The translations under genes and the position numbers were made by a program. Of a stretch of DNA of 64,000 bases, positions 1-12,280 are shown in pieces (the first letter of the stretch is position 1; each line of letters begins with the position of its first letter). Source of the stretch: an uncultured bacterium (GTDB lineage Bacteria; Omnitrophota; Omnitrophia; Omnitrophales; Abzuiibacteriaceae). The notes below the pieces were generated by a model. It was not told the origin of the DNA. It was given only the letters and a program-made list of their open reading frames with translations, and ran no database searches. The stretch spans positions 128,001-192,000 of the forward strand of contig CAYLXA010000005.1 in assembly GCA_964387845.1 (NCBI GenBank). The letters are read 5' to 3'.

Positions 1-485
1 AGCCCTTTCTTATCTTTGCTTAAAGAAAGCCGTTCAAAAAGCAGGGAACCCTTTTGACGCTCCAATTCCCGGACTGACCAATTGTTTTTGACACATTCAA
101 TTTCATAAAAGGAGCGTGCCTCCGGTCGTTCGACGCGCATTAAAATCCGGTAATGTGTCCAGCTCAATTCGTGACGCAGTGCGTCACGAATTGGGAAGGT
201 AAGATAAAACTGACGAATATATCGCAAATTCGAATCATCAAAGCCTCTCCCAAAATCTCTTGTTAGTTTTTCCGAAAGCGACTTCAATAACGTCTCACCG
301 TAAGTGGCACGTTTTTGGCCTTTTTGTTCTTCTTCCACAATTTCACGGCCGATTAACCAATAGGCCTGCACCATTTCGGTGTTGACGGTACGCGCAATGT
401 TGGAACGTGCCGATTCTATGATCTGACGGATTTTGGAATAGACTTGGTCTTGCTTTGAGTTTTTCTTTTGAACTTCTTGCGGCAT
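1..485 (-). CDS. YhcG/DUF1016-family (PD-(D/E)xK nuclease-like) protein, N-terminal ~160 aa; gene continues beyond window start
   Basis: rc translation from ATG (483-485) with GGGAGGG RBS gives MPQEVQKK...VQAYWLIGREIVEEEQKGQKRATYGETLLKSLSEKLTRDFGRGFDDSNLRYIRQFYLTF..., matching the conserved DUF1016 N-terminal region; frame stays open to position 1, so it is missing from the ORF track. Confidence 0.6.
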   Translation of the reverse strand, partial: MPQEVQKKNSKQDQVYSKIRQIIESARSNIARTVNTEMVQAYWLIGREIVEEEQKGQKRATYGETLLKSLSEKLTRDFGRGFDDSNLRYIRQFYLTFPIRDALRHELSWTHYRILMRVERPEARSFYEIECVKNNWSVRELERQKGSLLFERLSLSKDKKG

Positions 486-789
486 GAGTAATTTGCCCTC
501 CCTTTTTTGGTAGCCCTTCCGCCTTTTGGCTTCAGGACGATGCTTCTAACTGCGTGAAGCATCGGGCAAATCACTTAATGTGGTGTCTTTATGCGATGAT
601 CGCAACCCTGTCCCAGCGCCACTTTGAAACAAAAACTTGTTTCTAATCAAAGCGCTGGACTGGACTCATTTCCTATAGACCGAACGGTTCCATTAATGAA
701 AATGAGTCCTGGTACTGCTTGATGCGAGAGTGAAGGATATCATATGTCCGGTCCGTATCAAAATGATTTTTTTCAGTTAAATTAATCCC

Positions 790-905
790 GAAAGGGTATA
801 TTTTATTAATTCGAGTTAAATATTATACCTTATAAGGTATAATATTTTTAAATTATACCAAAAAAGGTATAATATTTTACTAAAGTAGTTGATATTATAC
901 CCTTA
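790..905. promoter_or_regulatory. Three palindromic operator-like sites (AAATATTATACCT-n-AGGTATAATATTT and two variants) overlapping a sigma70-like promoter (TTGATA ... TGgTATACT) upstream of the hipB-like gene
   Basis: direct reading of inverted repeats at ~816-850, 851-878, 889-915. Confidence 0.5.
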
Positions 906-1145
906 ATGGTATACTATTCTGCCATGGATTACATTGGAGAAGAAATTCAAAATTTGCGTAAAAGAGCAGGGCTCACTCAACGAGAATTCGCGAAGCGAGT
1001 GGGTGTGGGGCTTAGATTTATTCGTGATCTTGAACAAGGAAAATCTACCGTACGGCTTGATAAGGTAAATCAGGTGCTTGAATTTTTAGGGCATCATTTG
1101 GAGATTGTTGCCAACCGTGAACGAAAAAATATTCAGAAAAGCTAG
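906..1145 (+). CDS. HTH XRE-family regulator, HipB-like antitoxin/repressor
   Basis: 79 aa with helix-turn-helix LTQREFAKRVGVGLRFIRDLEQG; first gene of three-gene hip-like operon. Confidence 0.7.
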   Translation: MVYYSAMDYIGEEIQNLRKRAGLTQREFAKRVGVGLRFIRDLEQGKSTVRLDKVNQVLEFLGHHLEIVANRERKNIQKS

Positions 1146-1461
1146 AGTTAACTACAAAGATGAACTTGCCGGTTATTTACAAGAAACCGAGAATGGTTTT
1201 CAATTTCTGTATGATGAAAATTATTTGCGTTCCGGCGGACAGCCAATTTCTGTGTCACTTCCTTTAACGAATGAGCCTTACGAATCAAAAGAGCTTTTTA
1301 GTTTCTTCCGCGGACTTTTGCCGGAAGGTTGGTACCTCGATATCGTGAGTGCGGCTAAGAAAATCGATACCAATGATTCTTTCGGCCTGCTTCTGGCTAC
1401 CACAGGCGACACGATCGGCGCAGTGACCGTATATCCAATCCGGGAAAGCGATGAGTCCTAA
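1105..1461 (+). CDS. HipS-like protein (stand-alone HipA N-terminal subdomain)
   Basis: 118 aa with HipA N-terminal/coupling-domain features (LPEGW, GxDxxGA); overlaps hipB 3' end and the downstream kinase gene start; alternative GTG start at 1114. Confidence 0.6.
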   Translation: MLPTVNEKIFRKARVNYKDELAGYLQETENGFQFLYDENYLRSGGQPISVSLPLTNEPYESKELFSFFRGLLPEGWYLDIVSAAKKIDTNDSFGLLLATTGDTIGAVTVYPIRESDES

Positions 1462-2311
1462 TCTGTTTGAAGAAATGTTTGGCACGAGCGAAGCTCCTAC
1501 AATCCCACTTTCGTTGAAGGATGTTCCTCTTCAAGCGCAAGTGATGGCGGGGTATATGTCCATTTCAGGGGTGCAGCCAAAATTGGTGCTGAAATTGGAT
1601 AAGCGTAAAAATGAGCTGACGGTGGCTCAGACGGATGGTGAATATATTTTAAAACCGCAAATCCCGCATTTCCCCCAGACGCCCGAAAATGAAAACTGCT
1701 GTATGGATATCGCTCAGGCGTTTGAGATTGAGGTGCCGCCCCATTGCCTTCTTCCACTGAAAGACGGAAGCCTGGCTTATGCGGTGAAGCGTTTCGATCG
1801 TGTGAGCGGCGAAAAAATCAATCAAGAAAGCTTTTATCAAATTCTTGAAAAAAGAGACAAATATATGGGCTCTCTGGAACAAATCGGTAACAGCCTGAAA
1901 CAAATTTCCGTAGTGCCGGGCCTGGATGTTCAGCTTTTCTTTGAATTAGTCGTTTTCAATTTTCTGATCGGCAATGGTGACGCGCATTTTAAAAATTACT
2001 CCATTTCTTATTTAAAGGATGGCATCCGGCTTTCTCCGGCCTATGATCTGGTTTGTTCCAAGCTGGTGATTCCGGGCGATTCGGATTCCGCACTCACGAT
2101 CAATGGCAAGAAGAATAATCTTAGGCGGGGCGATTTTGATGTGTTGGCTGCTTATTTAAAAATTCCGGAAAAGGTTCGTTACGATAAGTTTGCAGGTCAG
2201 CTTGGAAAAATGGAGCAATTGATTCGAGCCAGCCAACTCTCGGCAGATTTTAAAAAGACGTTTATTCAAATAGTTTCTTCACGTTTTGATCGGCTTAAAT
2301 TGGTGAATTAA
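1451..2311 (+). CDS. HipT-like Ser/Thr kinase toxin (HipA C-terminal kinase domain)
   Basis: 286 aa; Gly-rich loop MSISGVQPK (SIS motif) and catalytic GNGDAHFKNYS motif typical of HipA_C. Confidence 0.75.
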   Translation: MSPNLFEEMFGTSEAPTIPLSLKDVPLQAQVMAGYMSISGVQPKLVLKLDKRKNELTVAQTDGEYILKPQIPHFPQTPENENCCMDIAQAFEIEVPPHCLLPLKDGSLAYAVKRFDRVSGEKINQESFYQILEKRDKYMGSLEQIGNSLKQISVVPGLDVQLFFELVVFNFLIGNGDAHFKNYSISYLKDGIRLSPAYDLVCSKLVIPGDSDSALTINGKKNNLRRGDFDVLAAYLKIPEKVRYDKFAGQLGKMEQLIRASQLSADFKKTFIQIVSSRFDRLKLVN

Positions 2312-2339
2312 GCGCGCTGAGCCCGGCACGATTAGAACA

Positions 2340-2470
2340 GGTACCAAAACATTACAAAGTAGTTAATCTAATTTCCTTATATTCACAGTTAAAATATGTA
2401 TATTTATATACATATATATGTATTGAATAGTACATTTATATGTATATAATAATACATATTATATTTGACA
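2340..2470. promoter_or_regulatory. AT-rich region with several ATGTATAT..ATATACAT-type palindromes (candidate operators/promoter) upstream of an unknown two-gene module
   Basis: palindromes atgtatatttatatacat, acatatatatgt, tacatttatatgta read directly. Confidence 0.35.
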
Positions 2471-2480
2471 TTAACACTTT

Positions 2481-2909
2481 TTGAGGGTAGATTTTCTCGT
2501 ACCGGAGGAAGCTGAATATACTAGATTAGTCAAATTTATGACCGCGGCCGGCTATAAACAAGTGACAGGCTATGGTTGGCAGAAAAAAGGAGAGGCAATC
2601 ATTTTTGATCTTTATGTCGGTAATTCGGTTTATTCAACGGAATTATTGTCATCGCCGCTTGAAAAAGGCGGCCATCAGAAATTGAAGGAATGGAATAAAA
2701 TTTATTTAGGTGCTTTAAATCCGGTAGATCTGATTATTTCAAAAATGTTTCGCGGCAGCGAAGTGGATGTCCAGGACAGTTTAGCGTTACTCAAGCATGA
2801 GAAAATTAGTATTGAGGAATTAAAGAAACGATACATCAAAACAGCCAAATATGATGTAAGCGAAGACAGGGTATTGAAAAATTTAGATACATTACTCAGG
2901 AGGCTTTAA
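2481..2909 (+). CDS. hypothetical protein (TTG start); possibly nucleotidyltransferase/AbiE-like, unassigned
   Basis: 142 aa ORF, 3-nt gap to next gene (operon). Confidence 0.4.
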   Translation: MRVDFLVPEEAEYTRLVKFMTAAGYKQVTGYGWQKKGEAIIFDLYVGNSVYSTELLSSPLEKGGHQKLKEWNKIYLGALNPVDLIISKMFRGSEVDVQDSLALLKHEKISIEELKKRYIKTAKYDVSEDRVLKNLDTLLRRL

Positions 2910-2911
2910 TC

Positions 2912-3583
2912 ATGGATAAAAGTGATTTGTTGGACCAATTGGCTCAGCATGGCTATTCATTGATGAAGCCAAAATCAGCCGAGCCGGCCGAAAAACTGCT
3001 GGAGGCATTGCTGAAGCAGGATGATGCGCGTCTTTTGGAGGGCTTTCCGGTGGTGTTGGCCAACGCGTTTGACCAAAAAGACGGCTTGACGTGGGAAAAT
3101 CCTAAATGGAATGCTGAGGAATGGCAGGGAAAAAACAGAAGAAAATTGGTGGCCATGCTGTCTTTTAGTTATTATTTGTTTCGTTTATTTGGATTGGCGG
3201 AGTCTGAAAAGAAAGTTTTAGATTTGGTCAAGAAATTAAAAGGGGATAAAACGCTTCTTCATTTAACCGAATCTTTTGCGGAGTCCAAAGAAGTAGACTT
3301 GGACGGTGTCTCGCTATCAACGGAAAGATTAAAAAGCGCTTTCCGCCAATATGTATTAACGTCGGATCAAGGCGACGAAGTCGAAAAAAAGAAACGCGCG
3401 TTGGAATTAGAGCTGCTGCTTTCCGAACTGTTCAGCACGCGGCAAAAAGAACTGCTTGAGAAGCGGCTTGGTGGGGAGGAATTCACCAAAACAGAGCGTG
3501 AATACTATTACCGCGTCGTCAAAAAACGCTTGAAAGCGCTCGCGAGTGACGAACTTCACCAGATGGCCCGTTCGTTGGTTTAG
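2912..3583 (+). CDS. hypothetical protein (helical, coiled-coil-rich C-terminus)
   Basis: 223 aa ORF translationally coupled to preceding gene. Confidence 0.45.
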   Translation: MDKSDLLDQLAQHGYSLMKPKSAEPAEKLLEALLKQDDARLLEGFPVVLANAFDQKDGLTWENPKWNAEEWQGKNRRKLVAMLSFSYYLFRLFGLAESEKKVLDLVKKLKGDKTLLHLTESFAESKEVDLDGVSLSTERLKSAFRQYVLTSDQGDEVEKKKRALELELLLSELFSTRQKELLEKRLGGEEFTKTEREYYYRVVKKRLKALASDELHQMARSLV

Positions 3584-3595
3584 GGCGGGGGGTGT

Positions 3596-3628
3596 GGCTT
3601 GAAGCTTGAAGCTTGTAGCCTGCAGCCC
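3596..3628. repeat. tandem heptamer array (GCTTGAA GCTTGAA GCTTGTA GCCTGCA), family A intergenic element
   Basis: 7-nt periodicity read directly. Confidence 0.6.
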
Positions 3629-3647
3629 ACAATCCTATCCGCCGAGC

Positions 3648-3667
3648 CTTACCCCTTACCCCTAAGT
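3648..3667. repeat. heptamer half-element (TTACCCC)x2, inverted partner of 9827-9862
   Basis: CCTTACCCCTTACCCCTAAG; its reverse complement TAGGGGTAAGG recurs at 9826. Confidence 0.5.
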
Positions 3668-4014
3668 TTCAATCTGGACACAAAGCTTTTTGAGGCATAA
3701 ATCCTACTTAAATTGTGCCTGTACCTGTCCACCAAAATGATGCCTGGCACCTTTCTGTTAAGGATTCATATGCAACTCCTTTTTCCTGTAACATCAGGAT
3801 ATCAGGTGTTGCACTAGTAACTTGAACTCAAGCAGGTACCGAAGTAGAAATCCACTTCCTATCCGCTATACGTTGTTCGCGAACCAATAAAATAGTTGTT
3901 GAAATATAATATAAAGATTGTAAAATAATTACCTCACGCAAACAGTAAACCCCTCTCACGCCTTCACGCGCAAAATCAAACTAATTTCGTAATGCGTTCA
4001 CAAGAAAGGCGGAT

Positions 4015-4809
4015 TTGCCAATGAAAAAAGAAAAACTCATTTCTCAGAGGGATGGTTTACCAATTCGTTCAAGCGGTCCTTGGATCCGCAAAAAACATCA
4101 CTATTTAATCAGATATGCTGACATATTTACCCGAGGGATGAAGAACAAATGGGAATTGACGTACCTTGATCTTTTTGCCGGGCCCGGATGCTGCTTAATT
4201 GAGAAAGAGATGATCGAATTAGCCGGATCTCCGTTACTTGCATTAGGTTTTGATTTTAGGAAATACATTTTTATTGAACAGGATCATGATGACCTTGAAG
4301 CATTGAAACAGCGGTGCTCAAAATCACCAAAACTAAGCCAGATTCAATTCATAGAAGGGGATTGTAATAAGAATATTGATCAAATTCGATTGACGGGATT
4401 AACGCTGGCTTTTATCGATCCAACTGGTATTGACGTTCATTTTGAAACGATTAAACGACTCACCTCTTTAGGGCCGGTGGACCTGCTAATAAACATACCA
4501 TTTCACATTGATATCAAGCGCAACTTCACGAAGTATATAAAAACCCAACATAAAAAATTGGATCTCTTTCTTGGCGGTAAGGTACCGTGGGATAAATTGC
4601 ATCAAGAAAGGGATGTTTTAGAGTTATACAAAAAGCGAATAAAGGATTTGGGGTATCAAACCGTAGAATACAGCGACATAGTTGTCAGTAATACAAACAA
4701 AGTTCCTATGTACTTTCTTTTCTTTGCGTCCAAGCATTCGCGTGGTGTAGAATTCTGGAAGAAAATTACCAAGAAAGACGAAACCGGACAACTGGAGTTA
4801 GAACTCTAA
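4015..4809 (+). CDS. three-Cys-motif partner protein TcmP-like (class I SAM-MTase-like motifs)
   Basis: 264 aa; N-terminus matches TcmP family pattern; DLFAGPG (motif I-like) and FIDPTG (DPPY-like motif IV); immediately upstream of DUF5131 gene. Confidence 0.55.
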
Positions 4810-4811
4810 GA

Positions 4812-5570
4812 ATGAGCGATAAATCAAATATCGAATGGACCGACGCGACATGGAATCCGGTAACGGGATGCAATAAAATCAGCCCCGGATGTAAAAACTG
4901 CTACGCCGAAACTTTCGCTGAGCGCTGGCGGGGAATTCCGGGCCATCCCTACGAACAGGGTTTTGACCTCAGATTATGGCCTGAGCGTGTCGGCTTGCCA
5001 TTATCGTGGAAAGAGCCGCGGATGATTTTTGTCAATTCCATGTCTGATCTTTTTCATAAAGATGTTCCGGATGACTTTATAGGGAAAGTATTTGAAACGA
5101 TGCTCAAAGCTAATCAGCATACTTTCCAGGTTCTGACCAAGCGGCCTGAGCGCATGGTTGAATGGACCAAGAAAACATTCGGCAATCAAAAATTACCGCG
5201 TCATATCTGGCTTGGTGTTTCGGTTGAAAACCAGGATTACGTATGGCGAATCATGTATCTTCAGCAAACACCGGCTCAAATCCGTTTTCTTTCGGTTGAG
5301 CCTCTTTTGGGGCCTGTTGTTTTAAAATCTTCAAATTTAAAAGGCATTCATTGGGTGATCGTGGGTGGCGAGAGCGGACACAGAGCCCGTCCTATGAATC
5401 CCGACTGGGCGCGTGATATCCGCAATCAATGCGAAAAATATGGCGTCGCTTTTTTCTTCAAACAATGGGGCGCTTTTAACGCGAAAGGCGAACGCGTTGG
5501 TAAAAAAGCCGCCGGCCGGGTTCTCGACCGCAGAACCTGGAACGAAATGCCAATTACAATCCCCGCCTAG
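4812..5570 (+). CDS. DUF5131 / phage Gp37-Gp68 family three-Cys-motif protein
   Basis: 252 aa; [27 protein letters not shown] signature (C-x6-C-x2-C). Confidence 0.65.
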
Positions 5571-5593
5571 AATCCATCTCTCGTGGTTTAAAC

Positions 5594-5626
5594 GAGAAGC
5601 TTGTAGCCTGTAGCTTGCAGCTTATC
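5594..5626. repeat. tandem heptamer array (GAAGCTT GTAGCCT GTAGCTT GCAGCTT), family A
   Basis: read directly. Confidence 0.55.
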
Positions 5627-5744
5627 ATCATGATATAATTCCTATCGCGACGGCGCCCACATTGACCGCCGCGTGATGGCACTTGCGCCAGCGTTACCGC
5701 AGGTGCCTGCGAACGAAGTGACGCAGAATAAAGCGCAAGTGTCT

Positions 5745-6092
5745 ATGTCCGACATCAAGAAACTCACCGAAAAGATCAAGCAATTCCGCGACGAACGGGA
5801 TTGGAAGCAATTCCACAACCACAAAGATATGGCACTTTCACTTGTTCTTGAAGCCGCTGAACTTTTAGAACATTTCCAGTGGAAAACATTGGATGAAGTT
5901 GAAAAGCACGTGAAAACCTCAAAAGAGGATGTTTCAGATGAGCTTGGCGATGTCGCGATCTATCTTTTCGAGCTCGCCGATAACTTAGGGATAGACCTAT
6001 CAGAAGCGGTAGAAAGCAAGCTTCTTAAGAATGCCAGAAAATATCCTATACAAAAATCTAAAGGCACCATAACCAAGTACAATCAATTGTAA
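5745..6092 (+). CDS. MazG-like nucleotide pyrophosphohydrolase
   Basis: EHFQWK..E.ELGDV..YL..LA..LGIDL..A...KL.KN..KYP MazG signature; start taken at internal ATG 5745 (ORF track 5673). Confidence 0.65.
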   Translation: MSDIKKLTEKIKQFRDERDWKQFHNHKDMALSLVLEAAELLEHFQWKTLDEVEKHVKTSKEDVSDELGDVAIYLFELADNLGIDLSEAVESKLLKNARKYPIQKSKGTITKYNQL

Positions 6093-6099
6093 AGATTAA

Positions 6100-6876
6100 A
6101 TGCCCGGCAATGAATCTGCAGTAATAAAGTATTTGTTCAGAAATAAGAATCGTCTCGAGTTACCTCATTTAGGTTTAATAAAATCAATTGGGTTTCCAAA
6201 TGGACTCACAAATAACTACAAAGAAATAAAAAATGAAAATGAAATTTTAGAATGTTGCTCAGACAATGCTCGAAAAAAAGCAGATGTCTATATTAATGGG
6301 CAAGGCGTATCAATAAAACAATCAGGAGGAAGTTTTTCTTTTAATCGTTTGCAGCGTGCCGAGTTAATAGAAGTTTTTGCTAGTTTAATTTTTGATGCCC
6401 CTCATAATGTTTTAACTCAATTAGATAAAGAAGTTGAAAAATTTCATTTTGGAAAATTATCAGGACGTGGTAGGCCGTGGAAAGATTTTTTCTCAAATAA
6501 AGAATTTTATGCTTTAACAAATGCTCTTATGATGTTGCAATCTCCAAATTATGGACTTTCTCTTCATCCCGCTAAATTTATTCTGGAGGCTTCAAAAAAT
6601 TTAACAACCAATCCGAGTTTAAAAGTTTATACTTTTGATGAATATTTTGAACGTTATAACGAGTTTTTCAGGATTGCTATAAGACGTGTTTGGTTGGGGC
6701 AGAATAGTAAATCTGAGCATGGCCGTGCAAAAAGTCTAATAGCAAAACCTGAGAATGCAACCTGGGTCTTTAATACAATTTCCGGAACGCCAAGAAGTGG
6801 TTGGAAAGTTGATTTTCCAAAGTCGGAAAGAAGAACTGTGTATTATTTGATGATAGAAAAAGTAAATTCAAAATGA
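6100..6876 (+). CDS. hypothetical protein; candidate Type II restriction endonuclease of the adjacent vsr-dcm module
   Basis: 258 aa, low GC, 4-bp overlap with vsr; possible D...(V)SIK PD-(D/E)xK-like element; no family recognised. Confidence 0.35.
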   Translation: MPGNESAVIKYLFRNKNRLELPHLGLIKSIGFPNGLTNNYKEIKNENEILECCSDNARKKADVYINGQGVSIKQSGGSFSFNRLQRAELIEVFASLIFDAPHNVLTQLDKEVEKFHFGKLSGRGRPWKDFFSNKEFYALTNALMMLQSPNYGLSLHPAKFILEASKNLTTNPSLKVYTFDEYFERYNEFFRIAIRRVWLGQNSKSEHGRAKSLIAKPENATWVFNTISGTPRSGWKVDFPKSERRTVYYLMIEKVNSK

Positions 6877-7301
6877 CATTTGTATTTCAAACGACAAGTC
6901 AACGCTCCGAGTTAATGAAAAAGATTAAAGGAGTTAACACTAAGCCAGAAATTGCTTTTGCAAAGAAACTTGAATTATACAAAGTCAAGTTTAGAAAACA
7001 TTTTAAAAAACTCCCTGGAGTACCGGATTTTGCTATTTTGAGAGGTAGAGTAGCGGTGTTTATCGATGGGGAGTTTTGGCATGGATACAATTGGGTTAAT
7101 AAAAAGAAAAGGATAAGATCCAACCGACAATACTGGATTAAAAAAATAGAAAGAAATATACTAAGAGATTCGATAAATATGAGAGAATTAAAGAAAATAG
7201 GTTGGTATCCTTTAAGATTTTGGCAGCATGAAGTTGTTGCTGAGGGTGATAAATGTATAAAGAAAATCGAAAAAATAATGCAGCGACGAAGTTCAAAATA
7301 G
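6873..7301 (+). CDS. vsr: very-short-patch-repair endonuclease Vsr
   Basis: TSQRSELM...TKPE...FIDGEFWHG... conserved Vsr core. Confidence 0.8.
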   Translation: MTFVFQTTSQRSELMKKIKGVNTKPEIAFAKKLELYKVKFRKHFKKLPGVPDFAILRGRVAVFIDGEFWHGYNWVNKKKRIRSNRQYWIKKIERNILRDSINMRELKKIGWYPLRFWQHEVVAEGDKCIKKIEKIMQRRSSK

Positions 7302-8383
7302 CATCTTTTTTTGCTGGCTGTGGCGGCCTAGATTTAGGTTTCCAGCAAGCGGGCTTTGATGTTGTTTGGGCAAATGAATACGATAAAACAATTTGGGCTA
7401 CCTACGAACACAACCATCCTCATACGTTTTTATGCAAGAAATCTATTATCGATGTCAAATCAGATGAAATTCCAACTGTTGTTGGCATGATAGGTGGCCC
7501 GCCATGCCAAAGCTGGAGTTTAGCCGGAGCCATGAGGGGAGTAAAAGACCCGCGAGGTAAACTTTTTTATGAATACATAAGAATCTTGGCCGATAAACAA
7601 CCATCATTTTTCTTAGCCGAAAATGTTGCGGGCATTGTTTCTAGCACTCATGTGAATTCATTTGAAAATATCCTTAAAAAATTCGAAGAAATTGGTTACG
7701 TTACTTCATATAAATTGCTTGATGCAAAATCCTACGGCGTTCCTCAGGATCGGAAAAGAGTTATCATTGTAGGGTATTCTAAAGGTTTACATAAGAAATT
7801 TGAATTCCCGCAAGAAACTCATGGTGTAAATTCAGCGAATGGCGACTTATTCAAGCCACATTTAAAACCCTATGAAACTTTACGCTCTGCAATTGACGAT
7901 TTGCCTAATCCGGTGCCTGCTAGTTTGAAAAATAAGTCGAACAGCAGAATTCGTATTCCAAATCACGAATATATGACAGGAGGTTTTTCTACCATTTACA
8001 TGTCACGAAATAGGAGAAGAAATTGGAATGAGCCTTCATTTACAATTCAGGCGGGAGGCCGGCATGCACCGCTACATCCATCAAGCACTGAAATGATTAA
8101 AAAAGAGCCAGATTGGTGGGTATTTAAAAAGAAAGACAAAAAGGCTTATCGGCGAATGTCGGTAAGAGAATGCGCACGAGTTCAAACCTTCCCTGATAAA
8201 TTCATATTCAAATATGATTCAATTGCGGATGGTTATAAAATGGTTGGTAATGCAGTTCCCGTCGAGTTGGCGCGTGTTATAGCATTAAGAATAAAGTCAG
8301 ATTTGATACCAGAGAAAAATAATCTTAAAAGATCATCCCTTCGCAAAACACCCTATTCCGAATTGGTGTTAGCTTCCTCATAA
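7253..8383 (+). CDS. dcm: DNA (cytosine-5)-methyltransferase
   Basis: motif I FAGCGG, motif IV GGPPCQSWS, ENV motif VI, C-terminal target-recognition region. Confidence 0.85.
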   Translation: MYKENRKNNAATKFKIASFFAGCGGLDLGFQQAGFDVVWANEYDKTIWATYEHNHPHTFLCKKSIIDVKSDEIPTVVGMIGGPPCQSWSLAGAMRGVKDPRGKLFYEYIRILADKQPSFFLAENVAGIVSSTHVNSFENILKKFEEIGYVTSYKLLDAKSYGVPQDRKRVIIVGYSKGLHKKFEFPQETHGVNSANGDLFKPHLKPYETLRSAIDDLPNPVPASLKNKSNSRIRIPNHEYMTGGFSTIYMSRNRRRNWNEPSFTIQAGGRHAPLHPSSTEMIKKEPDWWVFKKKDKKAYRRMSVRECARVQTFPDKFIFKYDSIADGYKMVGNAVPVELARVIALRIKSDLIPEKNNLKRSSLRKTPYSELVLASS

Positions 8384-8424
8384 ACCGTAAACTGGACACC
8401 GTCCGGCAGAAAAAAGGTTGTTGA

Positions 8425-9540
8425 ATGAGGCAAATATTCATAGTAGTGGCAGGAGGCAATGCTGCTGCTGATCGTCACTTCGAAGATACAATCCAACGTA
8501 AACGTACCTTAGATGAAGTGCGGCAATTTCTATCTTCCCAAGAAATTCATGAGATCGAATCAGTTTATCATACAGCACCTTTTATTGTCTGGGGCGCTAT
8601 TCCCGGCCCAATGAATATTCCGCGTTGGCAAAGTATGCGTGTTGGCGATATTGTTTTGATTTACACAAGAGGACATATCCGATTAATTGGCGAAGTGGCA
8701 TCAAAAGTAAGAAGTAATTCGTTGGCTCGCTATTTTTGGAAAGAAACACCCGAAAACAAAACCTGGGAATTGATTTATTTTATTGTAAATGAACAAAGGG
8801 TAAATATACCGATGCCTTTATTAAATGAAGCGCTTGGTTATAGCGCAAGTTACTCTCCGAGGGGATTTAGTTCTGTCGATTCTGATAAGGTCAAATCATT
8901 CGTTAATCGTTATGGCGATATATTCGAAGGGCTTAAAACACTCAGTAAAGGCGAGAAACTAATCGAAATTTCGCCAGCGAAAAAGTTAGAAGTCCAACAG
9001 GTTGAAGAAAAGATTGAACAATCATCGAATGAGCATGACGAAATGCAATGGCGGTTAATTAGATTGGGCAAATTGTCAAGGTACGATGTTTGGGTTCCCA
9101 GAAATGATCAAGGGCACAGCTTTGGAGGTCAACGATTTCGGGATTTTGTGTTGCCGGAATTCCACGAGAGTTTAGATGTTCCACCCAGTATTAAAAATAT
9201 CGATGTCGTGTGGAAATTTGGTCCTTATTCGATCACATCTGCATTTGAAGTCGAACATTCAACATCCGTTTATTCAGGAATTTTAAGGCTTTCGGATCTG
9301 AGAACCGAAACACCGAATTCACAATACCCACTTTTTATTGTTGCTGACGAAGCAAGAAAGCGGAAGGTATTTTCGGAACTTGCGCGCCCCACTTTCTCAA
9401 ATCCCTTTTTGCGACTTCACGAAGTAATACGATTTTTGAGTTACGAAAGAATCAGGGACATTGATGAAAAGTATAAGCAAGAACCTGAATTTGAACCGCA
9501 AATACTCTTTACTGCCGGAGAAACTTTCGAGAAAAATTAA
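8425..9540 (+). CDS. hypothetical protein with EVE/PUA-like N-terminal domain and putative PD-(D/E)xK-like C-terminal nuclease domain (candidate modification-dependent restriction enzyme)
   Basis: VGDIVLIYTRGHIRLIGEVASKV resembles EVE core (VGDLVFFYHS..IVGIAEV); C-terminal DVWVP...IDVVWKFGP...AFEVEHS pattern. Confidence 0.4.
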   Translation: MRQIFIVVAGGNAAADRHFEDTIQRKRTLDEVRQFLSSQEIHEIESVYHTAPFIVWGAIPGPMNIPRWQSMRVGDIVLIYTRGHIRLIGEVASKVRSNSLARYFWKETPENKTWELIYFIVNEQRVNIPMPLLNEALGYSASYSPRGFSSVDSDKVKSFVNRYGDIFEGLKTLSKGEKLIEISPAKKLEVQQVEEKIEQSSNEHDEMQWRLIRLGKLSRYDVWVPRNDQGHSFGGQRFRDFVLPEFHESLDVPPSIKNIDVVWKFGPYSITSAFEVEHSTSVYSGILRLSDLRTETPNSQYPLFIVADEARKRKVFSELARPTFSNPFLRLHEVIRFLSYERIRDIDEKYKQEPEFEPQILFTAGETFEKN

Positions 9541-9729
9541 CAAATCGAGGATCTTATCATGATTAAATCAAGAAAATTGAAGGCTGATCTAACCCAGTTA
9601 TTAAATTATCTTTGGCATGACGAGAGAAAACATTATTTGGAGCGGCGAAACAAGAATCATATTTATTTAACAATTCGCAGATTGGCAAAAGAAATTAGTT
9701 ATAAGCCGTAAATCGAACGCGTCTCGACG

Positions 9730-9840
9730 ATGTGCGGAAGATATTCATTAACCCTCGATAAAAAGAAACTCCTCGCGGAATTCGCGCCCGAGCCCCGCGC
9801 CCACAAATTTCTTGATTTCCATTATAGGGGTAAGGATTAA
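9730..9840 (+). pseudogene. 5' fragment of a SRAP (YedK/HMCES, DUF159) gene: MCGRYSLTLDKKKLLAEFAPEPRAHKFLDFH then out-of-family tail and stop
   Basis: MCGR N-terminus with catalytic Cys2 is the SRAP hallmark; only ~31 family-like codons. Confidence 0.55.
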
Positions 9841-9862
9841 GGGGTAAGTCGTAAGTTTTAAG
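9827..9862. repeat. heptamer half-element GGGGTAA GGATTAA GGGGTAA GTCGTAA GTTTTAA, inverted partner of 3648-3667
   Basis: 7-nt periodicity; reverse complement of 3648-3667 motif. Confidence 0.5.
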
Positions 9863-9936
9863 TAGAATTATGCTGATAGTCATACCCCATCCCTCCTAAA
9901 CATTCCCCTTGAACATGTTGTAGTTATGTACTACAA

Positions 9937-10533
9937 TTGTTGTACATCATGACAACAAGTTTAATCTTTCAGCTCCAGCAAACCAAGTCGCCGCTCAGGA
10001 AGAAGCTTTTATCGTACTTCTTCACGAATCCCGGGGCGAAGCTCTATCTCAGAGATATCGCGCTCAAACTCCATGTCGATCCCGCGAATCTTTCGCGCGA
10101 GCTCAAGCGGCTCACCGATGAAAGTGTTTTTGTTGCCCAGAAGCAGGGTAATCTCAAATATTTCTCTTTGAATCCAAAGCACGCCTTATATGAAGAATTT
10201 AAGTCCATGATTTTTAAGACCATCGGCGCTCAAGGCGCGATTGAAAACCTGTTAAGTAAAATCCCGGGAATTAAACGCGCTTTTATTTATGGTTCGTTTG
10301 CCAAAAATACGGAGCGTGCGGATTCCGATATCGACCTTTGTATGATCATCCAAAAAAAAGAATTCAAAGAAAATCCTTTCCTTGAGGGAATTCATAAACT
10401 CGAAGGTGAACTTGGCAGGGAAATCAATTATACTTTCTTTACCGACGAAGAATGGCAGTCCAAGCAGCGATCTAAAGATAGCTTTGTCACCGGAATTCTT
10501 AAGAATAAAAAAATCGATCTCATGCATATATGA
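9937..10533 (+). CDS. minimal nucleotidyltransferase (MNT) with N-terminal winged-HTH, antitoxin-like partner of HEPN
   Basis: AFIYGSFAKNTERADSDIDLCMI NTase motif; wHTH N-terminus; ATGA overlap with next gene. Confidence 0.75.
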   Translation: MLYIMTTSLIFQLQQTKSPLRKKLLSYFFTNPGAKLYLRDIALKLHVDPANLSRELKRLTDESVFVAQKQGNLKYFSLNPKHALYEEFKSMIFKTIGAQGAIENLLSKIPGIKRAFIYGSFAKNTERADSDIDLCMIIQKKEFKENPFLEGIHKLEGELGREINYTFFTDEEWQSKQRSKDSFVTGILKNKKIDLMHI

Positions 10534-10994
10534 AAAAAATTGATCTTCAAGATTTAATTCAAGAAGGGCAGCTTCAAGAAGAGCCAGGTATCGGCTGGGA
10601 CCAGGTGGAGCGTTTAATTAAACGGGCATTTGAAGATTTGAAATCAGCCGACCGGAACATGTCCTTTGATGAGCCGGGCGCGATGGATTTTATCTATAAG
10701 GCGATGTTTCATGCTGGGAACGCTTTGATTCGTTCATATGGGTTTAGGCCGGGCGCTACCAGACAGCATCAAGGTGTGATTACGGCAGTTGGGCGGATCT
10801 TGGGCGTTGAATCAAAGGCGCTGATTCTGAAATTTGATAAACTCAGGAAACGCCGCAATGAGTTTGAATATCAGGGCATTTTTGCGATGGGAAGAGAAGA
10901 GTTGAAAGATTCCATCGAACAAGCCAAACAATTGGTTGGCGTGATACGAAAAGCACTCGAAGATTCTCATCCACAAAAGCAGTTTAAATGGTAA
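10530..10994 (+). CDS. HEPN-domain protein (putative toxin of MNT-HEPN pair)
   Basis: 154 aa helical protein with KRRNEFEY R-x4-6-H-like motif; genetic coupling to MNT. Confidence 0.55.
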   Translation: MKKIDLQDLIQEGQLQEEPGIGWDQVERLIKRAFEDLKSADRNMSFDEPGAMDFIYKAMFHAGNALIRSYGFRPGATRQHQGVITAVGRILGVESKALILKFDKLRKRRNEFEYQGIFAMGREELKDSIEQAKQLVGVIRKALEDSHPQKQFKW

Positions 10995-11024
10995 GCGAAG
11001 ACCATAAAGACGGCGCCGGGCACC

Positions 11025-11107
11025 TGCTACTCATTAACACTCGATAAAAAGAAGCTCCTCGCGGAATTCGCGACGAACCCCGCGCCCACAAATTTCTTGA
11101 TCTCCAT
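11025..11107 (+). pseudogene. second SRAP 5' fragment (CYSLTLDKKKLLAEFATNPAPTNFLISI), start codon lost
   Basis: ~77-bp direct repeat of 9745-9823 at ~90% identity. Confidence 0.5.
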
Positions 11108-11315
11108 CAAAGTTATATATACTATTCACCATAGTAAATAAGCATTAACCCCCTCCTCGCTCAAAGTATTAAATTCTCCAAGCTTCCTCCACATAAAGTC
11201 TCTTTTTTCACTTGCGCTTTATGCGCAAGTACCATCTCTCGAGGCTCAAAGTTAGCCTCGTATTGCTAGGCCGCGTAAACTATGGTTGACACTGTGTAGC
11301 ATATAGGGTACACTT

Positions 11316-11645
11316 ATGATGACTTGGAAAATTTTGCATTACCGGAGGCGCGACGGAAGGATTCCTTTCCAAGAATGGTTTTCCGAATTTTACGATGCTC
11401 GGGTTTGCGCTAGAATTCAATCACGGATTCACAGGTTAGAGCGTGGTAACTTTGGAGATTCAAAGAGCGTAGGTGATGGGCTCTTCGAGTTACGATTTCA
11501 CTTTGGGCCCGGCTATCGCATTTATTATGGAATTCGTCACGGCCGGATTGTTATTTTGCTTTGCGGGGGCGACAAAAGTAGTCAGCAAAAAGATATTCAA
11601 ATAGCAAACGTATATTGGCAGGATTATTTGGAGAGTCAACTATGA
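11316..11645 (+). CDS. RelE/ParE-superfamily addiction-module killer protein (HigB-like, Gp49 family)
   Basis: GDGLFELRFHFGPGYRIYYG...ILLCGGDKSSQQKDI signature. Confidence 0.75.
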   Translation: MMTWKILHYRRRDGRIPFQEWFSEFYDARVCARIQSRIHRLERGNFGDSKSVGDGLFELRFHFGPGYRIYYGIRHGRIVILLCGGDKSSQQKDIQIANVYWQDYLESQL

Positions 11646-11953
11646 GACGATATAAACCGTATGTAGATCATCAGGAATGGTTGTTGAAATCATTAAAGGA
11701 TCCTGAGATGGCTTCTGAATATCTAAATGCCGTGCTAGAAGAGGGTGATAAGCAATTATTTTTGATGGCACTCAAAAATGTGGTGGACGCGCAAGGTGGG
11801 ATGACAAAGATGTCGGATAAATCTAAAATCAATCGTGTGAGCCTTTACAAAATGCTCTCAAAGAACGGAAACCCCGGCTTTGAAAATATTTTGAGATTAC
11901 TTCAAATTGCCGGCATTCGTTTTCGGGTGACACCGCAATCTCGTAGGAAATAA
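11642..11953 (+). CDS. addiction-module antidote protein (HigA-like HTH)
   Basis: FLMALKNVVDAQGGMTKMSDKSKINRVSLYKMLSKNGNPGFENILRLLQIAGIRF matches antidote family; start at ATG 11642 overlapping toxin stop. Confidence 0.7.
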   Translation: MRRYKPYVDHQEWLLKSLKDPEMASEYLNAVLEEGDKQLFLMALKNVVDAQGGMTKMSDKSKINRVSLYKMLSKNGNPGFENILRLLQIAGIRFRVTPQSRRK

Positions 11954-12154
11954 TTGCTGCACACTCACGCTTGATGCGTGAGTGCTAAATCCGTAGAGAA
12001 ACCACAAGTTTCTCACGGATAATACTTGCACATAGGTGCAAGTGCATCCGCGCGGCGTGGTTGACAATCCACACCTAATTCTGTATGATACTTCATCGGT
12101 GCACGAAGTATTGAATTACAGATGTAAAACCCACCGATTAGTTCAATTAATCCA

Positions 12155-12280
12155 AGTAAAAATTCAAAATCTAAATATCAAAATTCAAAACAATTATTAA
12201 ATTCCAAATTCAAAACGTTTTGAAATTTAATATTTGTAATTTGAATTTGTTTTATGTTTTGATATTTGAATTTTGAAATT
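12155..12280. repeat. long AT-rich imperfect palindrome (CAAAAT/ATTTTG-rich arms centred on CAAAACGTTTTG) immediately upstream of guaB-like RBS
   Basis: read directly; ~60-nt arms. Confidence 0.55.

Follow-up and report, generated by a model that had tools for sequence, protein, structure and literature searches.

What does a gene that joins a putative modified-base reader to a nuclease do when it lies directly downstream of a cytosine methylase gene? In the 64,000-nt stretch of DNA analyzed here (the window), the initial annotation described such a gene, proposed that its product is a modification-dependent (Type IV) restriction enzyme recognizing modified cytosines, and called its position next to a dcm gene paradoxical. 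Our analysis suggests that the gene probably encodes a stand-alone, single-chain Type IV restriction endonuclease, whose most likely role is the destruction of foreign DNA carrying modifications, and that this enzyme probably reads a base other than host 5-methylcytosine. This prediction draws on the homology and folds of the two domains, on their shuffling among proteins, on conserved key residues, on the solitary occurrence and island context of the gene, and on the insertion of a separate methylase cassette beside it.

Domain architecture and family of the predicted nuclease

The gene and the main parts of its product, numbered by position in the window, are as follows.

8425–9540, (+) strand: target gene, ATG start, 371 aa; YTH/EVE-like reader plus NmeDI_C nuclease, predicted Type IV restriction endonuclease
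8425–8949, (+) strand: residues 1–175, PUA-superfamily YTH/EVE-like modified-base reader domain
8950–9024, (+) strand: residues 176–200, inter-domain linker, low confidence and partly helical (pLDDT <50 at residues 183–191; helix at 188–198)
9025–9480, (+) strand: residues 201–352, NmeDI_C (PF27126), FokI/BspD6I-like PD-(D/E)xK cleavage domain
9202–9255, (+) strand: candidate catalytic acidic residues D260 ... E275-V-E277, conserved at 100%, 100% and 99% in 83 representatives

Both peptides quoted earlier, PFIVWGAIPG...VGDIVLIYTRGHIRLIGEVASKV (residues 52–95) and NIDVVWKFGPYSITSAFEVEHSTS (residues 258–281), are present in the translation. The ORF is genuine and not a chance one, with 753 homologous clusters (E<=1e-3) and 299 matches among the 185,579 GTDB species genomes searched; these matches are spread patchily over many phyla and include one Promethearchaeota (Loki) MAG. 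In addition, 2,381 representatives matched the reader and/or the nuclease domain. The target family is large, strongly conserved (mean column identity of 73% in an alignment of 51 sequences) and uncharacterized; it is mostly bacterial and concentrated in the uncultured lineages Patescibacteria, Acidobacteriota and Omnitrophota, whose defense biology is poorly known. A search of plasmid and phage collections found no full-length homolog: plasmid matches were to the NmeDI_C domain only, and an AAA ATPase of an Archaeoglobus provirus was the single reader-domain match.

Residues 1–175 were predicted to fold as a PUA-like beta-barrel with flanking helices (the initial annotation had proposed a PUA/EVE beta-barrel core at residues ~50–125), and the nuclease half has the PD-(D/E)xK restriction-endonuclease-like fold of FokI/BspD6I-like type. 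The predicted structure of the whole protein had a pTM of 0.56, with pLDDT >70 in one of five models, and the inter-domain arrangement is poorly predicted. Scans of the protein with Pfam (a set without the PF27126 model) and NCBIfam returned nothing useful; the precomputed annotation PF27126.1 is carried by the identical protein P0001 and by 120 of 120 homologs among the matches listed, and the PADLOC model PDLC03534 ("REase_II", 351 positions) matched residues 202–326 (E=8.4e-10). When compared with 83 NmeDI_C representatives that have other N-termini, D228, D260, E275, E277, R288 and D291 proved 98–100% conserved (R288 and D291 100%), and all six are kept in the target. The proposed D...EVEH-type PD-(D/E)xK element is thus backed by the NmeDI_C match and by the retained acidic residues D260, E275 and E277, which are candidates for catalysis; as E277 occupies the third catalytic position in place of the canonical lysine, this assignment of the active site is tentative. 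Nothing found pointed to the regulatory role that had also been suggested, and the invariant catalytic residues are retained.

The reader and nuclease domains are shuffled independently. Alternative partners of the reader are HNH_2, HNH, NucS-like PD-(D/E)xK, McrB-type AAA_5 (AAA+) and ParB_N domains, while the NmeDI_C nuclease is also fused to EVE, HEPN and TPR modules. Taken with the fold and profile results, this shuffling supports the proposed architecture of a PUA/EVE-like reader joined to a PD-(D/E)xK nuclease, and these lines together with the genomic context (see below) support the prediction of a modification-dependent enzyme.

Candidate base recognized by the predicted reader domain

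Among solved structures, the N-terminal domain of Thermococcus gammatolerans McrB (TgMcrB) comes nearest to the reader, by fold as well as by sequence profile. Searched against PDB sequences, the reader profile A4 aligned over positions 2–145 with 6p0f (E=3.6e-5) and 6ut5 (E=1.1e-3), making this 6mA-reading domain its sole significant match (next match, E=0.64). Profile A1 alone gave E=0.042, and a single-sequence search of the PDB sequences with the target gave only noise, so that profiles were required. Identity between the reader and the TgMcrB domain is about 18–19%. The Pfam EVE (PF01878) and YTH (PF04146) models did not match the target at E<=1; among 23 reader relatives, EVE matched weakly in 5 (best E=0.0057) and YTH in none. 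Because both models fell below threshold, we class the reader as YTH/EVE-like and assign it to neither Pfam family.

Three aromatic residues are candidates for a base-binding cage.

8590–8592, (+) strand: codon of W56, first candidate aromatic-cage residue (VWG motif), 100% conserved, aligned with the W of FWG in TgMcrB
8737–8739, (+) strand: codon of W105, second candidate, 100% conserved, aligned with the W of DFWRK in TgMcrB
8764–8766, (+) strand: codon of W114, third candidate, 96% conserved, aligned with F in TgMcrB

In the alignment, W56, G57 and W105 are invariant in readers of every fusion type and W114 is 96% conserved, outlining a candidate pocket with the pattern W/W/W in the target versus W/W/F in TgMcrB. 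This candidate pattern resembles the three-aromatic cage of YTH structures. The TgMcrB N-terminal domain is reported to have a YTH fold and to be directed at 6mA in DNA, with little binding of RNA (PMC7680126, PMC7544203, PMC7897488). Since the reader is closest to this 6mA-specific domain, the claim that it recognizes modified cytosines is unsupported. A different modification, which the initial annotation had also raised, appears from the sequence comparisons to be the better guess, with N6-methyladenine as the leading candidate on the strength of homology to a relative only 18–19% identical; hypermodified phage bases are possible.

A variant of the Type IV reading is that an EVE-like reader senses 5hmC, glucosyl-5hmC or another hypermodified pyrimidine and ignores plain 5mC. 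The weak EVE matches among the reader relatives, with none to YTH, fit this proposal, as does the presence of VcaM4I and THYN1 among the structural matches of the reader; moreover, prokaryotic YTH-like domains are not cleanly separable from EVE (PMC7641849), and indifference to 5mC would suffice for coexistence with C5-methylases. However, the only significant PDB sequence match is the 6mA-reading TgMcrB domain, and the candidate W/W/W cage lies close to the W/W/F of TgMcrB, whereas the VcaM4I pocket, which binds 5mC and 5hmC, consists of P24, W82 and Y130 (PMC7897488). We therefore regard this variant as an unlikely minority option. It is extremely unlikely, by comparison, that the protein acts on modified RNA such as m6A transcripts, an idea prompted by the RNA-binding eukaryotic YTH proteins and by proposals for some Type IV-like systems: the TgMcrB domain is reported to favor 6mA DNA with little RNA affinity (PMC7544203), the cleavage domain is of a restriction type acting on dsDNA and akin to those of NmeDI, FokI and BspD6I (PMC2095814), and the fusion partners of the reader (HNH, NucS-like, McrB and ParB) are DNA enzymes.

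The adjoining methylase cassette and the genomic neighborhood

The following genes lie upstream of the target gene in the window.

5745–6092, (+) strand: MazG-like NTP pyrophosphohydrolase, ancestral upstream partner (PF12643, E=7.5e-21; the listed ORF begins at 5673, with the likely start Met at 5745)
6100–6876, (+) strand: HinP1I/MspI/HhaI-like Type IIP restriction endonuclease, first gene of the cassette and separate from the target enzyme
6873–7301, (+) strand: Vsr very-short-patch repair endonuclease of the cassette (PF03852, E=9e-20; TIGR00632, E=8e-32)
7253–8383, (+) strand: C5 cytosine DNA methyltransferase of the cassette (PF00145, E=8e-90; TIGR00675)

Together, the endonuclease at 6100–6876, Vsr and the C5-methylase constitute a complete R-V-M cassette of Type IIP, which separates the MazG-like gene from the target as the result of an insertion. 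The methylase is 55–56% identical to methylases adjoining homologs of the endonuclease ORF (orf258), the same cassette is found elsewhere adjoining a serine recombinase, and the GC content of 6100–8383 is lower, at 0.33–0.39. In the closest relative of the target (L088, 79% identical), which is without a methylase, the MazG-like gene stops 2 nt before the start codon of the target homolog, and its product is 68% identical to the MazG-like protein of the window. Since the two genes are directly adjacent there, the cassette between them in the window is an insertion, and the target adjoins a cytosine methylase only because this separate cassette was inserted beside it. The methylase is unrelated to the function of the target. 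Thus, the adjacency noted initially stands (the gap is 41 nt), but the paradox does not, because the methylase belongs to its own complete cassette. A promoter and terminator scan of 5500–10000 stayed at background level and was uninformative on co-transcription. The locus is a clear case of nesting, with a Type II R-V-M cassette lying inside a predicted Type IV operon, and it illustrates that methylase adjacency need not mean a functional link.

To describe the neighborhoods of homologs, we used 54 non-redundant full-length loci and scanned their 107 nearest-neighbor ORFs with Pfam. Almost all homologs stand alone, surrounded by toxin-antitoxin and defense genes that vary between loci and include NERD, HNH, MTES_1575, AIPR, Fic, RhuM, MmeI and toxin-antitoxin pairs; the island in the window carries HipA, DUF5131, MNT-HEPN and Gp49/HI1420 genes. 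No Pfam family occurred in more than 4 of the 107 ORFs, and a multi-gene system defined by a conserved neighbor was rejected. Vsr was likewise dismissed as a functional partner: the Vsr gene of one related locus (L044) is part of an HpaII R-M-V cassette, and no locus has Vsr without also having a C5-methylase. The family is patchily distributed and located among defense and mobile genes, and it couples its reader to a nuclease in the absence of a cognate methylase, as expected of Type IV enzymes; a cognate methyltransferase of matching specificity, as expected of a Type II enzyme, is lacking.

These data bear directly on whether the target could instead be a classical NmeDI-type Type II endonuclease cognate to the adjacent C5-methylase, which would recognize an unmethylated site, cut outside it and be blocked by methylation. 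The only database labels of the target, NmeDI_C (PF27126) and the PADLOC "REase_II", would suggest so; the order of methylase and then nuclease, with Vsr, mimics the NmeDI M-R system (PMC2095814); the 41-nt gap holds no terminator-like site on the (+) strand; and Vsr plus a C5-methylase also occur in three related loci. Nevertheless, the NmeDI match is confined to the cleavage domain (residues 202–326), and the N-terminal half differs from that of NmeDI in having a fold of base-flipping readers. Apart from the window, only 3 of the 54 loci have a C5-methylase within 8 kb, and its absence beside >90% of full-length homologs would be lethal if the protein were a Type II enzyme; the closest relative is among those entirely without one. 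The methylase of the window already has a co-inherited HinP1I/MspI-like endonuclease; C5-methylase systems with their own effector genes also adjoin the homologs in L044 (HpaII R-M) and L040 (helicase/MZB), and in L038 the neighbor is a LexA-methylase fusion, neighbors that point to compatibility of the target family with 5mC. Finally, methylases beside different homologs are ~30% identical to one another, versus 73–77% for the target homologs themselves. A Type II enzyme is therefore very improbable, and the labels "NmeDI_C" and "REase_II" may mislead automatic annotation into calling the target family Type II.

The MazG-like gene calls for separate consideration. Using jackhmmer, we found it upstream of the homolog in seven loci from several clades (the closest relative and six others), plus the window; it is absent beside most homologs. 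One interpretation, which we put forward as speculative and on balance unlikely, is that the genes of the reader-nuclease and the MazG-like pyrophosphatase make up a two-gene module directed against modified DNA, in which the nuclease would destroy DNA with non-canonical bases (6mA, phage hypermodification) and MazG would hydrolyze the matching modified dNTP. If so, MazG might keep salvaged modified nucleotides out of the host chromosome and avert self-restriction or, alternatively, starve phages that replicate with modified dNTPs. Our literature search found no MazG-like proteins tied to Type IV restriction.

The same coupling to a house-cleaning enzyme could be read as a sign of a housekeeping or repair nuclease, in which the PUA domain senses a lesion (e.g., an alkylated base), the nuclease incises and MazG cleans the dNTP pool. 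For a defense gene, the cross-phylum identity of 60–65% (Patescibacteria, Acidobacteriota, Omnitrophota and Planctomycetia) is high, and the gene is present in small-genome Patescibacteria, both in keeping with such a role. Against it stand the very patchy distribution across species genomes, the variable neighborhoods rich in toxin-antitoxin and defense genes, the shuffling of the reader with McrB-type AAA+, HNH and other restriction modules, the restriction-enzyme type of the nuclease and the lack of a MazG partner beside most homologs. We consider a repair function improbable and retain the Type IV enzyme as the preferred interpretation.

Proposed mechanism and comparison with known systems

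As a Type IV endonuclease, the protein would scan DNA with its N-terminal YTH/EVE-like PUA domain, flipping a modified base from the helix into the putative pocket of W56, W105 and W114, where it would be held. The NmeDI_C domain would then cleave the DNA close to this base, at a fixed offset, probably once the protein has assembled into a dimer or tetramer on two modified sites, in the manner of NmeDI, FokI and MspJI.

The MspJI family, which depends on 5mC or 5hmC, combines an SRA-like reader with a PD-(D/E)xK-like nuclease, and its logic is the same as that predicted for the target: an N-terminal PUA-superfamily base-flipping reader and a C-terminal fixed-distance nuclease in a single polypeptide, with no NTP. 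The target differs in that its reader is YTH/EVE-like and not SRA, its nuclease is of another family and the modification read is probably different too. Single-chain cutters near 5-methylcytosine of the MspJI family became tools for mapping epigenomes, and the 6mA-dependent enzymes in the literature consulted are DpnI, other winged-helix fusions and the motor-driven TgMcrBC. If the target proves 6mA-dependent, its compact YTH-like reader and FokI-type cutter could enlarge the epigenome toolkit; with fixed-distance cutting as well, it would serve to map 6mA, as an "MspJI for adenine methylation."

TgMcrB (PDB 6p0f/6p0g/6ut5) combines its YTH-like N-terminal domain with an AAA+ GTPase and works with McrC. 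It thus requires a GTP-driven motor and a separate nuclease, whereas the target holds reader and nuclease in one 371-aa chain and has no NTPase. R.NmeDI of Neisseria meningitidis is a Type II enzyme that cuts as (12/7)RCCGGY(7/12) (PMC2095814) and has the C-terminal cleavage domain (PF27126) in common with the target, which by analogy may cut outside its recognition element, probably as an oligomer. The site that NmeDI reads is unmethylated, and the NmeDI gene overlaps that of a cognate C5-methylase, whereas the target family is solitary, and the N-terminal half of the target is unrelated to that of NmeDI. The EVE-HNH modification-dependent endonucleases VcaM4I and TspA15I (PMC7897488, PMC6765204) carry an HNH nuclease in place of the PD-(D/E)xK domain of the target.

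We found no experimental study of a single-chain YTH-nuclease in the literature, and YTH-HNH and YTH-NTPase fusions were named as future work in 2024 (PMC11037411). Fusions of prokaryotic YTH-like domains to PD-(D/E)XK nucleases were noticed bioinformatically by Bell, Wolf and Koonin in 2020 (PMC7641849), who called them rare and mostly archaeal and left the NmeDI_C and MazG associations undescribed; the target family, in contrast, is large and mostly bacterial.

A two-domain gene in a defence-rich island

The island at 1-12200 is lower in GC (0.33-0.47 vs about 0.5 downstream) and dense in toxin-antitoxin and defence-type genes; from 12298 on it gives way to housekeeping genes (an IMPDH-family gene, guaA and dnaE). 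It also holds a MazG-like gene, restriction-modification genes and the reader-nuclease ORF that is our target.

Features of the island
1105-2311, split HipA
2481-2909, DUF6036 nucleotidyltransferase
2912-3583 and 4015-4809, two unknown ORFs
4812-5570, DUF5131 gene (PADLOC candidates PDC-M41B and PDC-M30B, E about 1e-105)
5673-6092 (likely start 5745), MazG-like (PF12643) pyrophosphatase gene
6100-6876, putative endonuclease gene
6873-7301, Vsr, overlapping the methylase start
7253-8383, C5-cytosine methyltransferase (PF00145, E = 8e-90; TIGR00675)
8425-9540, + strand, target ORF (ATG start, 371 aa)
9937-10994, MNT-HEPN pair
11316-11953, Gp49/HI1420 addiction pair

The two strings quoted in the initial annotation were recovered in the target translation (PFIVWGAIPG...GEVASKV at residues 52-95 and NIDVVWKFGPYSITSAFEVEHSTS at residues 258-281), and the ORF does lie directly after the C5-methylase gene (7253-8383), with a gap of 41 nt. 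From its family counts, identity and alignment conservation, we judge the ORF to be a genuine gene and not a chance ORF. Specifically, homologues formed 753 90%-clusters at E ≤ 1e-3, the best 120 of which all showed 60-79% identity to the target along its full length, and mean column identity in the family alignment (n = 51 sequences) was 73%. Scanning a single genome for each GTDB species yielded 299 relatives, and HMMER matched 2381 proteins among 1.8 billion representatives to one or both halves. The AlphaFold2 model built with the family alignment (mean pLDDT 79) shows confident folds for two domains (residues 1-175 and about 200-350), with low confidence in the linker between them.

Neither the Pfam EVE nor the Pfam YTH model matched the target; among 23 relatives of its reader domain (residues 1-175), five gave a weak EVE match and none a YTH match, in keeping with the comment by Bell, Wolf and Koonin that relatives of the YTH domain of Thermococcus gammatolerans McrB (TgMcrB) in prokaryotes are hardly distinguishable from EVE (PMC7641849). 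The kinship with TgMcrB is visible at the sequence level too: searched against PDB sequences, the whole-family profile hit 6p0f at E = 0.042, and a reader-domain profile built from diverse fusion proteins hit 6p0f at E = 3.6e-5; against full-length TgMcrB it gave E = 1e-3, with an end-to-end alignment. When the comparison was restricted to reader domains of proteins that carry other effector domains, W56, G57 and W105 proved invariant, and conservation was 90% or more at W114, Y118, H18, T22, N64, D75, K94 and E115. The TgMcrB counterparts of W56, W105 and W114 are W, W and F, and this three-aromatic pattern (W/W/W vs W/W/F) resembles the aromatic cage of YTH structures; we infer that the three tryptophans line one pocket.

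The C-terminal half carries a PF27126 annotation on the identical database protein (family name NmeDI_C), and the PADLOC REase_II model PDLC03534, whose 351 positions equal the length of R.NmeDI (351 aa), matches residues 202-326 (E = 8.4e-10). Conservation across 83 NmeDI_C domains with other N-termini is 98-100% at D228, D260, E275, E277, R288 and D291, six residues that the target retains in full. The 'D...EVEH' element, initially proposed as a nuclease candidate, thus proved to be the core motif of this family, since its acidic residues show this conservation and are kept in the target. Its exact active-site assignment is tentative because E-x-E stands where lysine is usual.

Exchange of reader and nuclease modules

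The reader domain is also fused to HNH_2, HNH, NucS-like PD-(D/E)xK, McrB-type AAA_5 motors and ParB_N, with a weak match for a FokI-like cleavage domain, and NmeDI_C also stands behind an EVE domain, a Swt1-type HEPN domain, TPR arrays and HNH-associated repeats (P0240, P0188, P0221/P0227, P0251). This shuffling matches the published mix-and-match of sensors and effectors in modification-dependent restriction enzymes (PMC6765204, PMC7897488), and NmeDI_C is, as judged from domain architectures, a widely reused cleavage module.

Three further observations concern these modules. NmeDI_C occurs in many ~340-aa proteins with unannotated N-termini and on ~195 plasmid records, mostly labelled hypothetical. 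In one homologous protein (P0151, 480 aa), the reader domain is C-terminal with ParB_N/HTH_ParB ahead, so that a sensor of modified bases is, unusually, joined to a ParB-type CTPase/nuclease-like domain. In the phage collection the reader domain matched only once (H16; BK065154.1, 3739-4095), inside a protein labelled 'AAA family ATPase' that the archaeal Archaeoglobus profundus pleomorphic provirus 1 encodes; this is presumably a McrB-like protein carried by a virus and equipped with the same YTH-like sensor.

Neighboring genes in the window and elsewhere

The protein encoded at 6100-6876 (258 aa; 157 homologous clusters) matched no Pfam, NCBIfam or PADLOC family; modelled with very high confidence (pLDDT 92), it resembles the HinP1I, MspI and HhaI endonucleases and apparently represents an unannotated Type IIP restriction enzyme family that travels with Vsr and a C5-methylase. 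We regard 6100-8383 as a self-contained endonuclease-Vsr-methylase cassette, because homologues of this protein are co-inherited with the methylase: L089/L090 (1431-8774) keep the window's gene order beside DUF2924 and a large serine recombinase, each of the three proteins sharing 52-55% identity with its window counterpart, and in L093 the homologue is convergent with a methylase 56% identical to the window's. In Bacillus benzoevorans, a homologue (L091/L092) lacks any methylase within 4 kb. No other genes of the region are as AT-rich as those of the cassette (GC 0.33, 0.33 and 0.39). The simplest history is that the cassette was inserted between the MazG-like gene and the target, the methylase being a neighbor by accident of insertion and not a partner.

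At L088, the locus of the target's nearest relative (79% identical), the methylase is absent and a MazG-like gene (107-454) stops 2 nt ahead of the homologue's start codon. Six more loci (L032, L035, L036, L039, L046 and L059, at about 7520-8002) have MazG-like immediately upstream, so that the pair recurs in 7 loci from several family clades, the two genes being on the same strand and separated by -1 to about 30 nt. Identity of the window's MazG-like protein to the L088 partner is 68%, against only 42% to the different one that follows the L089/L090 cassette, ahead of a TIR-nSTAND protein; MazG-like genes thus also accompany a C5-methylase cassette independently of the reader-nuclease. MazG-like and reader-nuclease may form a functional pair, e.g., in cleansing of modified dNTPs, and we found no account of this pairing in the literature. 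A housekeeping or repair nuclease partnered with MazG is a rival reading that would suit this link and the high conservation, but the distribution is patchy, the contexts are islands and the fusion partners are of restriction type, all of which argues against it and for a modification-dependent (Type IV) enzyme.

In neighborhood statistics from a simple ORF caller (54-59 loci), no neighbor family appeared in more than 4 of 54 non-redundant full-length loci, and those that recurred were nuclease, defence or toxin families (MTES_1575, NERD, HNH, Vsr, MazG-like, AIPR, Fic, RhuM, MmeI). A C5-methylase lay within 8 kb in only 3 of the 54, a situation in which no classical Type II endonuclease could persist. 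The database labels NmeDI_C and REase_II would steer annotators wrongly to Type II. The reading as an NmeDI-type enzyme serving the adjacent methylase conflicts with three findings: homologues are solitary, the N-terminal domain differs from NmeDI's, and the methylase already has an endonuclease of its own. Vsr and a C5-methylase adjoin the reader-nuclease in 4 of about 59 loci, a recurrence for which island clustering may not be the full account. Within one subclade, whose homologues share 73-77% identity, Vsr is directly downstream on the same strand, and the adjoining C5-methylase systems differ.

C5-methylase systems adjoining the subclade
L038, 9160-11958, LexA-S24 peptidase fused to C5-methylase, Promethearchaeota (Loki) MAG
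L040, 9199-15964, methylase, MZB-domain protein and large helicase (DISARM-like set)
L044, 9122-13161, HpaII endonuclease, methylase, Vsr and DUF6339

Specificity and proposed mechanism

Repeated coexistence with C5-methylase systems (L044, L040, L038) speaks for a reader indifferent to ordinary 5mC. The TgMcrB N-terminal domain, the closest characterized relative, reportedly prefers 6mA DNA over unmodified or 5mC DNA and binds RNA poorly (PMC7544203); we therefore rank 6mA first as the base read, at somewhat short of even chances, by analogy with a relative only 18-19% identical. A hypermodified cytosine or another phage base would rank second, and an EVE-like specificity for cytosine derivatives is a live sub-variant of the same explanation. 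Action on RNA is unlikely given an effector of DNA type and the DNA preference of TgMcrB.

In the proposed mechanism, the reader would flip the modified base into the tryptophan pocket, and NmeDI_C, held to the reader by about 25 linker residues, would cut a fixed short distance away, probably after oligomerization on two modified sites. NmeDI cuts at 12/7 nt as a tetramer that needs two sites (PMC2095814), and relatives of the domain that cut outside the recognition element include NmeDI, FokI and BspD6I.

YTH-like/PD-(D/E)XK fusions received a brief mention in 2020, where they were described as rare and found mostly in archaea (PMC7641849), and a 2024 paper left YTH-HNH and YTH-NTPase fusions for future study (PMC11037411). 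Our literature search returned no experiments with a single-chain YTH-like nuclease and no description of the YTH-like and NmeDI_C combination. The main interest lies in a candidate compact 6mA-dependent cutter and its MazG coupling; as a find, the target will not surprise specialists. PUA-superfamily readers joined to nucleases are a well-established class (MspJI, VcaM4I/TspA15I, TgMcrBC); the target would follow the same logic as MspJI but differs from it in both reader branch and nuclease family.
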